Notes: generated from the letters alone by a model not told the origin. DNA of 64,000 bases from a virus (IMGVR_UViG_3300046167_000883:49712-113711), one strand, 5' to 3'. Positions 29,506 through 34,108 are shown, counted from the stretch's first letter. Made by a program: numbers and translations.

Positions 29506-29619
29506 ATGGAATTAAAAATTGACAGATTCACCATTGTGTGCTTGTGCATCACGCTTTGCTTCGGCGTAGCGATCAATAAATTTGACTTGGTTAGGATGGC
29601 GCTTGGTTGGCTTATGTAA
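29506..29619 (+). CDS. early hydrophobic micro-protein (37 aa)
   Basis: MELKIDRFTIVCLCITLCFGVAINKFDLVRMALGWLM; its TAA lies inside the first repeat element. Confidence 0.5.
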   Translation: MELKIDRFTIVCLCITLCFGVAINKFDLVRMALGWLM

Positions 29620-29692
29620 GTGCCTGAGTATCAACGACTTACGGCGCGGGGCGCCCCCCCGCCGCGCAAGTGCTTGATATACAACGACTTAC
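29616..29692. repeat. double-palindrome element, copy 1
   Basis: GTAAGTGCCTGAGTATCAACGACTTAC - 23-bp GC-only spacer - GCAAGTGCTTGATATACAACGACTTAC. Confidence 0.9.
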
Positions 29693-29703
29693 GAAACCGC
29701 TGT

Positions 29704-29719
29704 TCAAATGCCGTGCCAA
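29704..29719 (-). promoter_or_regulatory. sigma54-like -24/-12 site (imperfect -12)
   Basis: TTGGCACG-GCAT-TTGA on minus strand. Confidence 0.4.
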
Positions 29720-29794
29720 CTTTATAAAATTTTTTTTTCACTTTTTTCTGCTTGAGGGCTTGACAGCCGCACCAAAATCCACATTGTTTTAATT

Positions 29795-30049
29795 ATGGAA
29801 GCTAAATTATATGATGTATCGGGTCTCTTTGAAACAGGAACTGAAACCGCAACTTTCGACCGCTCGCGCGAGGGTTTGGACGCCGCCTACGAATTCGTGA
29901 ATAATGCCTTCGCTTGGGAAATCAAGTGCGGGTCTGAGTTGGTCGACGAGTGCGACCCTTGGGTGGAAGAAGACCGTGATGAGTGTCGATCTTACTCATT
30001 CAAGCAAGAGCGCCCTCACTTACTCCTCTGCCTATTCGTTTTAATCTAA
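29795..30049 (+). CDS. hypothetical early protein
   Basis: 84-aa ORF, TTGACA 35 nt upstream. Confidence 0.7.
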   Translation: MEAKLYDVSGLFETGTETATFDRSREGLDAAYEFVNNAFAWEIKCGSELVDECDPWVEEDRDECRSYSFKQERPHLLLCLFVLI

Positions 30050-30068
30050 CCTATAAATCCATACTACA

Positions 30069-30395
30069 ATGAGCAAAGCAATCCTAGTTGACCCATTCGT
30101 CCCAGAAATCAAACCCGTGGAGGTCGAAGACTTCCACTGTATCCAACGCCATATCGGATGCGACGTGTTTACCTGCGTACGCTTTCCAGACGGGAAGCAC
30201 GTTGCCTACGTCGACGACGAGGGCTTAATCAACGGCACGGAACTTGCCGTTCGATTCACAGACGACATTTACCCGCAGCCTCTCGCTGGTCGCGTTCTCA
30301 TTCTTGCCGACGACGGCATGGGCGGCGACGCCGACTGCGAGTTGACAGGCGCAGACATTCAAGCGGTGATTCGCGGAATTGTAAGCATTTTTTAG
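30069..30395 (+). CDS. DUF3846-like protein
   Basis: AILVDP...IQRHIGC...YVDDEGL...PLAGRVLIL..D..G. Confidence 0.65.
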   Translation: MSKAILVDPFVPEIKPVEVEDFHCIQRHIGCDVFTCVRFPDGKHVAYVDDEGLINGTELAVRFTDDIYPQPLAGRVLILADDGMGGDADCELTGADIQAVIRGIVSIF

Positions 30396-30404
30396 TTGAC
30401 ATCC

Positions 30405-30480
30405 GTAAGTCCCTGCAAGTCAACGACTTGCGGGGCGGGGGCGGCCGCGGCGGCGCAAGTGCTTGATACTCAACACTTAA
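30405..30480. repeat. double-palindrome element, copy 2
   Basis: GTAAGTCCCTGCAAGTCAACGACTTGC - GC spacer - GCAAGTGCTTGATACTCAACACTTAA. Confidence 0.9.
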
Positions 30481-30594
30481 TCAAACAAAAAATTTTATGC
30501 TCCAGGTTGGCTTTCTACTATTTGGCGACCTATTTGCGTTCGATTTGCGTTCGATTTGCTTGACAACTGATTTGGATTCAATCACTATACAAAA

Positions 30595-30825
30595 ATGAAA
30601 ATTACACTAGACCTAACCAAAGAAGAGTGCCAAATCATCCGCGACGCTTTAACTAAGCGGATCTTAATCGAAGACAATTATCAACGCGATTTACTTAGAG
30701 CGACGCAAACATCTTCCGTTTCTAACCTTATGCAATTAAGCGATCGGCAGCGCAATAAAATGTCGAACCTTCAAGATCAATTTTCTTCACTTTTTCTGTT
30801 GACCAAGTGGAATCAATCAGCATAA
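30595..30825 (+). CDS. hypothetical early protein
   Basis: 76-aa ORF, TTGACA 35 nt upstream. Confidence 0.65.
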   Translation: MKITLDLTKEECQIIRDALTKRILIEDNYQRDLLRATQTSSVSNLMQLSDRQRNKMSNLQDQFSSLFLLTKWNQSA

Positions 30826-30853
30826 TAATAAACACAATCAACCAACACCAAAC

Positions 30854-31025
30854 TATGAGAACAGACATCACAATCACACTAGACGAAGCAAAAGACATTC
30901 TTGAAGAATACTTCGCAAAGCAACAAAACCTTGAACCAATGGAGACTTATGTCAGAATCACACTAGAGGGTTACATTGTTGACACTTTGCTTGAAGATGA
31001 GCCTGTCTACACAGCAAATGTATAA
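30854..31025 (+). CDS. hypothetical early protein (start approximate; MRTDITITLDEAK...)
   Basis: 3' part of ORF 30807..31025, downstream of its own TTGACC...CATAAT promoter. Confidence 0.6.
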
Positions 31026-31872: not shown

Positions 31873-31987
31873 GAAACTCTTTACGCGGCCTCGGCTCGGC
31901 TTGTCAATACTTTTCTTAAAAAAGTTTTAGAAAAATTTTTCTGAAAATCGCTTGACTTACTGACTCGCTGAATCAATACTCCTTCTT

Positions 31988-32695
31988 ATGGCTAAACTAC
32001 TAAACAACGGAAATGCGAAAACTAGCAAAGGCGAAAAACTCGGTTGGATCACTTACGGTCTACACCTTGCGCCTTTTAACCTAAGCGGAAAAAATGTTTG
32101 CTCTCATGCTTCAAAAGGCTGCGCTGCTGCTTGCCTTAACACGGCAGGACGCGGCGCAATGTCAAACGTTCAAAACGCGCGAATCGCTAAAACTCAAAAA
32201 TTCTTTGCGGATAAAGAAGCCTTTACTTGGCAACTTGCAAAAGAGATTGGCAATGCTGTAAAGCTCGCAACCAGGAAAGGAATGAAGCCTTGCTTTCGTC
32301 TCAACCTTACAAGCGACTTGCCTTGGGAAAACATAAAGGTAGAATCGCACGGGAAAAAGCTTTCGCTTATGGAAATGTTTCCAAATGTTCAATTCTACGA
32401 CTACACGAAAAACTTTAAGCGGATGCTTTCTTTTCTCAAAGGTGAAATGCCGAAAAACTATCACCTTACTTTTTCGCGTAGTGAATGCAACGACGACAAA
32501 GTTTCAATCGTAAAAGAACTTGGCGGCAATATCGCTGCTGTCTTTCGTAACGAGTTGCCAAAGGCTTGGAAAAATGTTCAAGTGATCGACGGAGACGAAA
32601 CTGACTTACGCTTCTTGGATGGGGCAAATAAAATTATTGGATTGGTTGAAAAAGGTCTTGCCAAAAAGGACAAATCGGGGTTTGTTATAGGCTGA
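31988..32695 (+). CDS. GP88-like Cys-rich phage protein
   Basis: NAKTSK...LAP....G.NVC..AS.GC.AACL..AGRG...RLN.TSD..W...QFYDYTK...NYHLTFSRSE...IDGDETDLRFLD. Confidence 0.7.
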   Translation: MAKLLNNGNAKTSKGEKLGWITYGLHLAPFNLSGKNVCSHASKGCAAACLNTAGRGAMSNVQNARIAKTQKFFADKEAFTWQLAKEIGNAVKLATRKGMKPCFRLNLTSDLPWENIKVESHGKKLSLMEMFPNVQFYDYTKNFKRMLSFLKGEMPKNYHLTFSRSECNDDKVSIVKELGGNIAAVFRNELPKAWKNVQVIDGDETDLRFLDGANKIIGLVEKGLAKKDKSGFVIG

Positions 32696-32741
32696 TGCTA
32701 CTGTTCTTTCTTCTTATCTTTCTCACTGTAATAATAACGCG

Positions 32742-32951
32742 ATGACAAAAAATCAAAGATACTATGAAATCAAAAAAATCTGCGAATCTAAAAATCTCAA
32801 AAACGACATTAGGCAACTGCCCTCAACCGAAGCCGACTTGCTCGACGAGTTTTCTCGATTCGATACAACGCTTGAACCAACTGACAATCTACAGGACTCG
32901 GACAAATGGCAAAACAAATTCCTTCAAAACTTAATCTTTGGAACGTCTTAA
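32742..32951 (+). CDS. hypothetical protein
   Basis: 69-aa ORF ending 10 nt before repeat copy 4. Confidence 0.55.
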   Translation: MTKNQRYYEIKKICESKNLKNDIRQLPSTEADLLDEFSRFDTTLEPTDNLQDSDKWQNKFLQNLIFGTS

Positions 32952-32961
32952 AGACGATTCC

Positions 32962-33038
32962 GTAAGTGCTTGATTATCAGGCACTTACGCGATCGCGGCC
33001 CCCCCGCGCCCGTAAGTCCTTGGTAAACAACGACTTAC
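32962..33038. repeat. double-palindrome element, copy 4
   Basis: GTAAGTGCTTGATTATCAGGCACTTAC - spacer - GTAAGTCCTTGGTAAACAACGACTTAC. Confidence 0.9.
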
Positions 33039-33060
33039 AGAACTCTGAATCGCGGCATAC

Positions 33061-33076
33061 GCAAACCCCGTGCCAA
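33061..33076 (-). promoter_or_regulatory. sigma54 consensus -24/-12 site
   Basis: TTGGCACG-GGGT-TTGC on minus strand, exact TGGCACG-N4-TTGC. Confidence 0.55.
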
Positions 33077-33173
33077 TTTGTATCGAAAAAAAATTCACTT
33101 TTTTCGTTTTATAGGGTTGACGAAAGCAAAAATTTTTCCCATACTGTGATCTTAACCTAAAATAATAAATACT

Positions 33174-33971
33174 ATGAATATCAATACCGAACACTCCGCC
33201 AATCAAGAACTTCTTAACCTTCGCGTGTGCGCTGCCGATGAGGTAGACTTCGCAAAGGTTCAAGGCGTTACTACTCCAGAAGCCTCCGATCGTTGGACTC
33301 CCATTGCTCACGATGCGCTCGTAAATCAATTCCGCGCGACAATCGACAACACTGAGCTTGAGATCGTTAACGAGCATCACTCGCTCCACCGCTACGGTCA
33401 ACGCTACTTTGGCTTGTTTCAAGTCAAGGGCGTGGGTCGCAAGCACGGCTCCGATGTTGGCACGGTGATGTGCCTCCGCAACTCACACGACAAGGCTTTC
33501 CGCGCTGGCATCTCTGCTGGTGATGCGCCTTTCGTTTGCTCCAACTTGATCTTCTCAAATGAGATCGTGTTGGGTCGCCGTCACACAACCCACATCATGC
33601 GCGACTTGCCGCAAATAATTTCCCGTGCGATTGGGCAGTTGATGGACTCGTGGACAACTACTGACAACCGCATTGACTCTTACAAGTCAACTGATATCGA
33701 TGACCGCGTGGCTCACGATCTGATCTTGCGCGGCTATCAAGCTGGCGCGTGTGGCAAGACGCAAATCGCCGACATTCTCACGCAGTGGCACAAGCCAGAG
33801 CATGAAAACTTTGAGGGTCGCGATCTGTGGTCGCTTCAAAACGCTTTCACCAACGTGTGGCGTGGTAACACTCTCAACACCGCGAATCGCTCAAGCTCGC
33901 TGTACTCCGTGCTTGACACGTTCGCCTCGTGTGCGAATCCCGTGAAGGCTGAGGTGATTAACGCCTCGTAA
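33174..33971 (+). CDS. DUF932/DUF945-family protein
   Basis: WTPIAH...YFGLF...LRNSHDK......G...FVCSNL...RHT...LWSLQNAFT. Confidence 0.75.
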   Translation: MNINTEHSANQELLNLRVCAADEVDFAKVQGVTTPEASDRWTPIAHDALVNQFRATIDNTELEIVNEHHSLHRYGQRYFGLFQVKGVGRKHGSDVGTVMCLRNSHDKAFRAGISAGDAPFVCSNLIFSNEIVLGRRHTTHIMRDLPQIISRAIGQLMDSWTTTDNRIDSYKSTDIDDRVAHDLILRGYQAGACGKTQIADILTQWHKPEHENFEGRDLWSLQNAFTNVWRGNTLNTANRSSSLYSVLDTFASCANPVKAEVINAS

Positions 33972-33982
33972 ACTACCGCCGT

Positions 33983-34020
33983 GCCTCGCCTCAATCTTGG
34001 GGCGGGGCTTTTTCTTTTTT
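33983..34020 (+). terminator. rho-independent terminator
   Basis: GCCTCGCCTCAA-TC-TTGGGGCGGGGC followed by a T-rich tail. Confidence 0.8.
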
Positions 34021-34031
34021 GCTTGACATTC

Positions 34032-34108
34032 GTAAGTGCTTGGTAATCAACGACTTACGCGGCTGCGGCCCCCCGCGACCTGTAACTCCTTGATATTCAA
34101 CAACTTAC
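34032..34108. repeat. double-palindrome element, copy 5
   Basis: GTAAGTGCTTGGTAATCAACGACTTAC - spacer - GTAACTCCTTGATATTCAACAACTTAC. Confidence 0.9.

Follow-up and report, generated by a model that had tools for sequence, protein, structure and literature searches.

The early region of a 64,000-nucleotide stretch of DNA from an uncultured marine phage (IMGVR_UViG_3300046167_000883:49712-113711, the whole of which is called here the window) carries five copies of a 77-bp double palindrome, designated E1 to E5, and comparison with related phages shows this element, at the level of sequence, to be a joint at which blocks of genes are exchanged. We read it, with a probability of roughly 0.55, as the stem-loop half of a composite boundary cassette resembling the promoter-early stem-loop (PeSL) of T4-type phages, the stem-loop having the form of a double hairpin like those of the REPIN and BIME elements of bacteria. 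Such a cassette would run from a stop codon through the 77-bp double palindrome, an optional inward-facing promoter and phased A/T tracts to a sigma70-type early promoter and the next gene block, and its stem-loop part would be a sequence-conserved doublet, like those of REPINs and BIMEs, of a 27-29-bp palindromic unit placed around a G+C hairpin. With some 77 bp of homology at each boundary, recombination between copies would move, swap, delete or replace whole gene blocks, which is the part of the scheme that the comparisons show, and the same homologous recombination would homogenise the spacers within a genome. The element would also close the upstream transcription unit, forming or insulating its 3' end in both directions, and it probably acts as a hairpin recognised by a conserved protein, which would explain why the sequence, and not pairing alone, is conserved.

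The element array and the exchange of gene blocks

The early region of the window (28.7-34.1 kb) is a plus-strand run of small genes with TTGACA-type promoters, which meets convergently a minus-strand block comprising a RuvB-like AAA+ gene and, farther on, rIIB and rIIA. Searching the window for GTAAGTnnTTGAnnnTCAAnnACTTAC at up to three mismatches returned ten matches in five pairs and one more at 43395, where shuffled sequences would yield 0.01; each of the ten paired units differs from GTAAGTnnTTGAnnnTCAAnnACTTAC by one to three mismatches, the two unit starts lie exactly 50 bp apart in every pair, and the 23-bp spacer between them is almost pure G+C. A preliminary description of this DNA had reported these pairs, their spacing and their GC-rich spacers, and all of this held. 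E1 (29616-29692; plus strand, as are all five) consists of units at 29616-29642 and 29666-29692 around the GC spacer, and the TAA within its GTAAGT is the stop codon of the open reading frame (ORF) at 29506-29619. E2 (30405-30481; units from 30405 and 30455) has a degenerate right unit with one base missing, E3 (31796-31872; units from 31796 and 31846) is replaced along with a gp82-like gene in the strain variants described below, E4 (32962-33038; units from 32962 and 33012) has a near-perfect palindrome as its left unit, and E5 (34032-34108; units from 34032 and 34082) sits at the convergent junction, directly after a canonical intrinsic terminator (33983-34018, plus strand).

Four elements had been said to overlap a stop codon or to start within about 10 nt of one, and the first four to be followed by a promoter. 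Both statements are correct: E1 overlaps the stop of the preceding gene, E2 to E4 begin 8-10 nt past theirs (E5 follows at 60 nt, with the canonical terminator in between), and TTGAC(A/T/G) -35 boxes lie 67, 78, 79 and 78 nt past the ends of E1, E2, E3 and E4, respectively. The eleventh match is a lone unit (43395-43421, minus strand) that stands, as described, before rIIA, 20 nt past a small minus-strand ORF and 3 nt before a canonical terminator (43364-43391), after which comes the rIIA promoter. As for the "half site" reported at the first early -35 box, AAGTGCTTGA does occur at 28693-28702, but the corresponding sequence is less unit-like in the related locus L001, and the match is probably a resemblance between a -35 box and the unit rather than a real half element. 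The unit itself, described as a palindrome of about 27 bp, was confirmed, but each is actually a 29-bp dyad (Y-GTAAGT...ACTTAC-R).

When related loci were aligned to the window by blastn, three blocks, namely the gp82-like gene, block C (a GP88-like gene and a 69-aa ORF) and block D (DUF932), were found in three or four orders among related phages, with an element at each joint. The window reads gp82-like gene, E3, block C, E4, block D, E5, whereas locus L041 reads gp82, element, D, element, C; L018 reads element, D, element, C, element, gp82; and L002 and L026 read element, D, element, C. Neighbouring alignments overlap by exactly one element, and 13 of the 49 distinct alignment ends in 28.7-35.3 kb fall at most 30 nt from an element (10.4% expected, p=0.001), the ends away from elements lying mostly at promoters or gene starts. 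This enrichment, together with the element at every permuted joint, bears out the proposal that breakpoints in gene content coincide with the elements. Fifty pairs of elements from different phages have only one homologous flank, and in these the left unit tracks the upstream flank, the right unit the downstream flank and the spacer either of the two, so that homology switches inside the element, in the left unit (L), the spacer or the right unit (R), and at no single fixed position.

Strain variants in seawater metagenomes break at 29612, 29657, 29668, 29698, 30434 and 33011-33043, the first four being loose variant ends at the edges of E1. The interval 31420-31899, which contains the L5 gp82-like gene and E3, is swapped for 16 nt and a hybrid element (at least three seawater runs, one metatranscriptome), and to judge from these variants the gp82-like gene is dispensable in natural strains. 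One variant carries a promoter-to-promoter deletion from 28735 to 29003, and contig joints that seem to go back along the window are explained by the variant gene orders. Permuted blocks, enriched alignment ends, one-flank pairs and strain breaks thus support one of the uses first suggested for the elements, as recombination joints in cassette shuffling, but not the dedicated system that went with it: as the preliminary description had remarked for the window, no recombinase is seen, the window ORFs examined and five relatives having yielded neither an integrase nor a Y1 transposase. With a crossover position that varies and no evident recombinase, the comparisons appear to be better matched by ordinary homologous recombination among the repeated cassettes, as in the PeSL mini-circle model, than by a dedicated recombinase.

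To find further members of the family, we scanned IMG/VR with a degenerate two-unit pattern in which the 23-nt spacer was fixed, so that a 50-bp spacing was guaranteed once per locus while further copies were unconstrained, and obtained 54 loci; the contigs that carry them number about 45, come from uncultured viruses and reach 178 kb in length. A re-scan of these loci with the single unit at up to five mismatches found the exact 50-bp spacing in 192 unit pairs, 156 of which are unique, and about twenty pairs at 44, 49, 51-53 or 60 bp; the element described from a single window thus recurs in its relatives. A single-unit scan of GTDB added phage-like contigs, binned into metagenome-assembled genomes (MAGs), with other constant spacings: 42 bp in L068 (9 of 9), 41/42 bp in L160, 45 bp in L085, 53 bp in L083 and 57/58 bp in L105. 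The geometry is therefore constant within a lineage, as the claim of a fixed 50-bp spacing implied, but varies between lineages. The values 41/42, 45, 50, 53 and 57/58 bp are not multiples of a helical turn, and there is no helical phasing between the two units at 42, 45, 50, 53 and 58 bp. The bins that hold L068/L117, L085, L083 and L105 are Enterobacterales, Bdellovibrionota, Rhodobacteraceae and Saccharibacteria MAGs, and the contigs, L160 included, look phage-derived.

Spacers from one contig have an identity of 0.71 and those from different contigs 0.56 (0.79 and 0.75 for the units); read from the alignments, the likeness of spacers within a contig is concerted evolution of the copies, which would account for a sequence that drifts while its spacing stays constant. 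Complete relatives (110-178 kb) hold 13-25 units restricted to one or two clusters of 3-17 kb, and each phage carries 5-12 elements. None of the cultured phages in INPHARED carries the element or matches the early region, or even one element, at the DNA level; DSS3_MAL1, the best rIIA relative, has no unit, and a literature search on the letters of the motif returned nothing relevant. By nucleotide similarity the phages with the element are not T4-like, and rIIA/rIIB-type genes are the only such genes seen in them.

Aligned across the family, the units give as their consensus a perfect dyad, Y-GTAAGTCGTTGA-nnn-TCAACGACTTAC-R, with a foot that reads GTAAG or GTAAC. In this alignment neither unit varies at T10, A18, T24 or T25, and A3 and A4 vary little or not at all; a mismatch at 8-20 is common, and the spacer holds a central mini-dyad of its own. 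An Rfam search over 26-46 kb at E<=1 assigned the element to no family and returned two tRNAs, one with a spurious antisense overlap.

Promoters, transcript ends and bacterial copies

By a crude ORF call nearly all elements are intergenic, and the ORFs between them are small. Across 94 co-directional contexts, the element starts no more than 15 nt past the upstream stop in 53 (0-15 nt being the usual range), and the next ORF lies a median of 104 nt downstream. The distance from element to promoter, 67-79 nt in the window, ranges from 8 to 129 nt in relatives, the promoters consisting of TTGAC(A/T/G), N16-18 and a -10 box; the element keeps its position relative to the upstream stop codon rather than to the promoter. 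The interval from element to -35 box is filled by A/T tracts arrayed as 10-11-bp modules, a longer gap having an extra module beside the element, and the distances between the two fall into classes about 10.5-11 bp apart. We considered whether this helical periodicity reflects contacts on one face of the DNA and rejected the idea, as the periodicity is produced by the A/T-tract modules and related sequences.

In the window, the downstream half of the first cassette (29693-29794) comprises an antisense promoter module, A/T tracts and a forward promoter with its -35 box at 29760; that of the second (30482-30594), 11-bp GTTCGATTTGC repeats and a forward promoter (-35 at 30560); that of the third (31873-31987), A/T tracts and a forward promoter (-35 at 31952); and that of the fourth (33039-33173), a sigma54 module, A/T tracts and a forward promoter (-35 at 33117), all four on the plus strand. 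The 11-bp tandem repeats (GTTCGATTTGC and its relatives), which stand directly upstream of the -35 box at 30527-30559 in the window, at 962 in L001, at 989 in L002 and at 5646 in L018, form a second kind of phased upstream module besides the A/T tracts. Early promoters end in CATACT or TATACT followed by GTAAGC-ATG or GTAATC-ATG (28962-29000, 29141-29178 and many related loci), and with the promoter end so near the ATG many early mRNAs appear to be leaderless or nearly so. E2 and E5 each have a TTGACA hexamer directly at their left edge (30396-30401 and 34023-34028, respectively), as do their L002 and L018 orthologues; no usable -10 box goes with these hexamers. GCTTGA within the unit also resembles a -35 region, and promoters and units may recombine at such microhomology.

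A minority of elements are faced by a promoter that points inward. The sole perfect sigma54 consensus in the window, TGGCAC-N5-TTGC at 33061-33075 (minus strand), has its -12 box 23 nt from the right edge of E4, and a motif with one mismatch, TGGCAC-N5-TTGA at 29704-29718 (minus strand), has its -12 box 12 nt from the right edge of E1, into which it would fire. In 558 kb of related loci, 30 of the 52 TGGCAY-N5-YTG(C/A) motifs place the -12 box at a fixed distance from an element edge, exactly 12-13 nt in 25 cases and 23 nt in 5, and all 30 are antisense to the flanking genes; judged by these positions, the coupling of motif and element is clearly non-random. Transcription would be predicted to start on the first base or two of the element at the 12-13-nt spacing and about 11 nt before the element at 23 nt. 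Seven further elements have a reverse TTGACA-N18-TAAAnA module in the same place, and in the window a reverse TTGACA at 31902-31907 (minus strand) is followed 18 nt on, toward the right edge of E3, by a putative TAAAGA-like -10 box, a module found also in L002 and L018. Inward-facing modules accompany about 15-20% of elements, sigma54-type ones about 15%. Sigma54-type promoters at such fixed distances are unusual in a phage. Neither the neighbourhood (where the RuvB-like AAA+ protein lacks GAFTGA) nor the five relatives, which gave weak generic AAA hits only, encode an activator of the GAFTGA type, and the bacterial units described below have no sigma54 motif at the phage-type distance. Possible purposes are the production of a small double-hairpin RNA, control of the upstream block by convergent transcription, or a roadblock of poised polymerase.

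Contigs from two metatranscriptome studies stop 12, 19 and 38 nt inside E1, E2 and E4, a weak hint of transcript ends, and they restart near the next promoter while DNA contigs read through the elements, again a weak hint, as these are contigs only. In some clades an A-run and a T-run flank the element in the manner of a bidirectional terminator (T-run after 14 of 94 elements, A-run before 15, both at 8). Single units in bacteria are intergenic, lie between housekeeping genes and often have extended stems and T-runs, the latter in 55 of 125. The position right after stop codons, the T- and A-runs, the bacterial T-runs and the stops of RNA contigs favour a role at transcript ends. The molecular action of the element may be termination or insulation, the binding of a protein, or an antisense RNA.

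In GTDB the single unit was found at no fewer than 120 loci, where by our own estimate chance would give about 10-17; most of them lie in Fibrobacter, Saprospiraceae, Cytophagales/Microscillaceae, Prevotella and Verrucomicrobia. One Microscillaceae MAG, G001, holds 1,663 copies at up to two mismatches (1 for a control), or about one per 4 kb, often arranged as 45/46-bp doublets with AT-rich spacers (loci L059, L061, L062, L084, L089, L151, L163 and L167). A massively amplified bacterial repeat that has the phage palindrome is unusual; by analogy, its amplification is REP/REPIN-like behaviour, and the Y1 transposase genes of G001 are not flanked by units. The possibility that the unit is a general Bacteroidota motif was rejected, since 120 random genomes had 0-1 copies, like the control, apart from one with 14 near-identical copies. 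Bacterial units show compensatory change at pair 7-21 (paired in 0.53, against 0.27 expected), and their flanks behave alike. In Fibrobacter (L066, L095, L096, L106, L127, L137 and L143), one unit lies 140-220 nt upstream of a 136-aa ORF that has no Pfam match, an arrangement kept across many Fibrobacter MAGs.

Readings of the element

The PeSL of T4-type phages combines a stem-loop, an AT-rich region and a sigma70 promoter in hyperplastic regions, beside insertions and deletions (Arbiol 2010, PMC2839356; Comeau 2014, PMC4122927). The element considered here likewise belongs to a composite of stem-loop, AT-rich tract and strong sigma70-type early promoter, is repeated between the small variable ORFs of a hyperplastic early region, and is accompanied by insertions, deletions, replacements and displaced ORFs between relatives at the cassettes. 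It differs in being a 77-bp double palindrome conserved in sequence across very divergent phages, with fixed internal spacing, no U-tract in this lineage and, in some copies, an inward-facing sigma54-type promoter. The stem-loop of the PeSL is an effective terminator, and for the element the signs are mixed: U-tracts are absent from the window copies, canonical terminators lie next to some of the units, RNA contigs stop inside E1, E2 and E4 (a weak sign), and T- and A-runs occur in other clades. By analogy, the element is best filed as an elaborate, sequence-conserved variation on the PeSL-type mobile regulatory cassette. To our knowledge, PeSL-type shuffling has been described so far only in T4-like phages, with simple and poorly conserved stem-loops, whereas the boundary element here is a much more elaborate one, conserved in sequence and present in dozens of uncultured marine phage genomes of 110-180 kb whose gene blocks are visibly permuted. 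It provides a searchable marker for fast-evolving early regions, where host-takeover and counter-defence genes are expected, and offers a concrete cis element for questions of termination, protein binding and recombination.

Several observations weigh against this reading. Mosaic phages commonly break at gene boundaries anyway, and repeats can interrupt Logan contigs. E1-E5 all lack a U-tract and an intrinsic-terminator score (the hairpin plus U-tract of an intrinsic terminator is found in only 14 of 94 family members), and E5 and the lone unit each have a canonical terminator directly beside them, so that the element may not terminate by itself. For 95 gene-oriented elements, the share of cells paired is 74.8% under a three-hairpin model (72.8% when shuffled) and 74.1% under a single long hairpin (73.2% when shuffled); pairing is barely above shuffles, and G.U and A.C mismatches are balanced at 133 to 159, which leaves a function as RNA or hairpin putative. 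The fixed-distance sigma54-type promoters, finally, are left unexplained by the boundary-cassette model. An attempt to tell the long hairpin from the three-hairpin fold failed, as both barely exceed shuffles, and covariation is confined to L5-23, spacer s10-s14 and L26-R2. The phage data therefore fit a hairpin (as RNA, single-stranded DNA or cruciform) and a protein-bound duplex dyad alike. Conservation of sequence across phages without common genes would argue for a trans-acting protein; a Pfam search of ten small early ORFs found no DNA-binding domain.

It is rather unlikely, in our judgement, that the elements are pairs of duplex operators, in which a dimeric protein of phage or host, DNA-binding or architectural (IHF/HU-like or a repressor), sits on each 27-29-bp dyad and organises or shuts off the early promoters, with the cassette breaks a by-product of the repeated sequence. 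Operators would account for conservation at the sequence level, with half-site conservation explaining almost all of the palindromy, for the lack of strand bias between G.U and A.C mismatches, and for element-to--35 distances in classes separated by about 10.5-11 bp. The IHF consensus, too, is matched by eight of the ten units, as the preliminary description had pointed out for several arms: exact WATCAANNNNTTR occurs 14 times in the window, 8 of them within units, against 7.25 expected overall. The consensus is one of low information, however, and is implied by the invariant bases of the unit, TCAA-N4-TT(A/G), which make the match automatic when the loop reads WA; an IHF/HU architecture is, on these matches, a conjecture, as is the decoy for nucleoid proteins that had also been suggested. 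Operator pairs are also at odds with unit spacings (41/42, 45, 50, 53 and 57/58 bp) that are not helically phased across lineages, with promoter distances of 8-129 nt whose periodicity comes from the A/T-tract modules, and with an element tied to the upstream stop rather than to the promoter. True compensatory changes in bacterial copies, at 7-21 and in the flanks, indicate a hairpin, and no helix-turn-helix or ribbon-helix-helix protein was recognised among the early ORFs. Permuted cassettes with elements at their joints could be the work of a recombinase that excises and inserts cassettes at dedicated sites of the integron attC or dif/lox kind, the unit having the dimensions of a recombinase site (arms of about 10-12 bp around a short centre, a mismatch at 8-20 being common) and resembling attC as an imperfect palindrome at the 3' end of each gene cassette, in arrays of variable order. 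We hold this to be improbable, given that the homology switch may fall in L, spacer or R with no fixed crossover point, that no integrase or Y1 transposase is found in the window region examined or in five relatives and no IntI among the ORFs examined, that the consensus lacks RYYYAAC/GTTRRRY cores, and that each cassette, unlike those of integrons, has its own promoter.

The promoters at element edges raise a further possibility, that elements are the 5' parts of small antisense RNA genes, each giving a double-hairpin RNA of about 80 nt from the inward sigma54- or sigma70-type promoter. The 30 of 52 sigma54-type motifs at 12/13 or 23 nt from an element edge, always antisense, and the seven reverse TTGACA-N18-TAAAnA modules speak for it. 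The perfect TGGCAC-N5-TTGC next to E4, with the TGGCAY-N5-YTG(C/A) of relatives, is what a sigma54 promoter would look like, but the -12 box is often TTGA rather than TTGC, the promoter points into the hairpin and away from any ORF, and no enhancer-binding protein or upstream activator site was identified. Against an antisense RNA, no phage-encoded sigma54 activator was found; only some 15-20% of elements have such a promoter; no RNA contig covers the rest of E1 or E4, though such libraries lose small RNAs; and G.U mismatches are not biased to the antisense strand. An antisense role for the element as a whole consequently strikes us as hardly likely. The RNase III sites of the T7 early region are likewise related long imperfect hairpins between early genes, whereas here each block has its own promoter, G.U pairs show no strand bias, and the hairpins are known from sequence alone.

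Least credible of all is that a REP-associated transposase spreads the elements as selfish miniature mobile elements of the REPIN type, which would do no more than tolerate intergenic sites. The points of likeness to REP, BIME and REPIN elements (PMC3116915, PMC3337134) are several: an imperfect extragenic palindrome of REP size (27-29 nt) forms doublets around a spacer, could fold into one long hairpin, lies at the 3' ends of transcription units, has copies homogenised within a genome, and is amplified about 1,660-fold in one bacterium, the 1,663 copies of the Microscillaceae genome (1 for the control) including 45/46-bp doublets. Nevertheless the GTAG 5' foot is absent, being GTAAG or GTAAC here; no RAYT or Y1 gene was found, a PF01797 search of five phage genomes giving no match and the Y1 genes of the Microscillaceae MAG being unflanked by units; elements are clustered at 5-12 per phage, restricted to the early region and placed precisely after stops; units look directly rather than invertedly oriented in this clade; and the element is conserved over many phage lineages, unlike the species-specific REP type. 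We also entertain, as doubtful, a reading that joins several of these strands, in which the 27-nt unit would be the cis site of a hairpin-recognising protein common to phages and some FCB-group bacteria, and the phage doublets would end transcription without a U-tract, launch or receive sigma54 antisense RNAs at the element edge, and act as integron-like exchange points independent of a recombinase. If it were true, the early cassettes exchanged in this way would possibly be host-takeover or anti-defence genes, and the 1,663 copies in the Microscillaceae genome would be members of this element family that live in a host lineage in the manner of REP repeats.

Neighbouring features

Between E5 and the terminator of the RuvB-like gene, a sequence of about 28 bp, TTATTTGGTTnnGTTTACATTTG, is directly repeated three to four times (34141-34240, with cores at 34168, 34196 and 34224); the repeats have the look of iterons and could be an origin or a regulatory array. 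The RuvB-like AAA+ gene itself (34294-35223, minus strand) encodes a 309-aa protein whose entire length aligns with RuvB, solved structures of RuvB being matched at E=1e-11, and that PHROGs labels a clamp loader; it adjoins the last element in the window and in L002/L026 and L039, but not in more distant relatives. At the other end of the array, the first early promoter is directly preceded by two HNH/endonuclease VII-like genes (27087-27731 and 28020-28484) and by tRNA genes for Met (at 27005) and Arg (at 27722).

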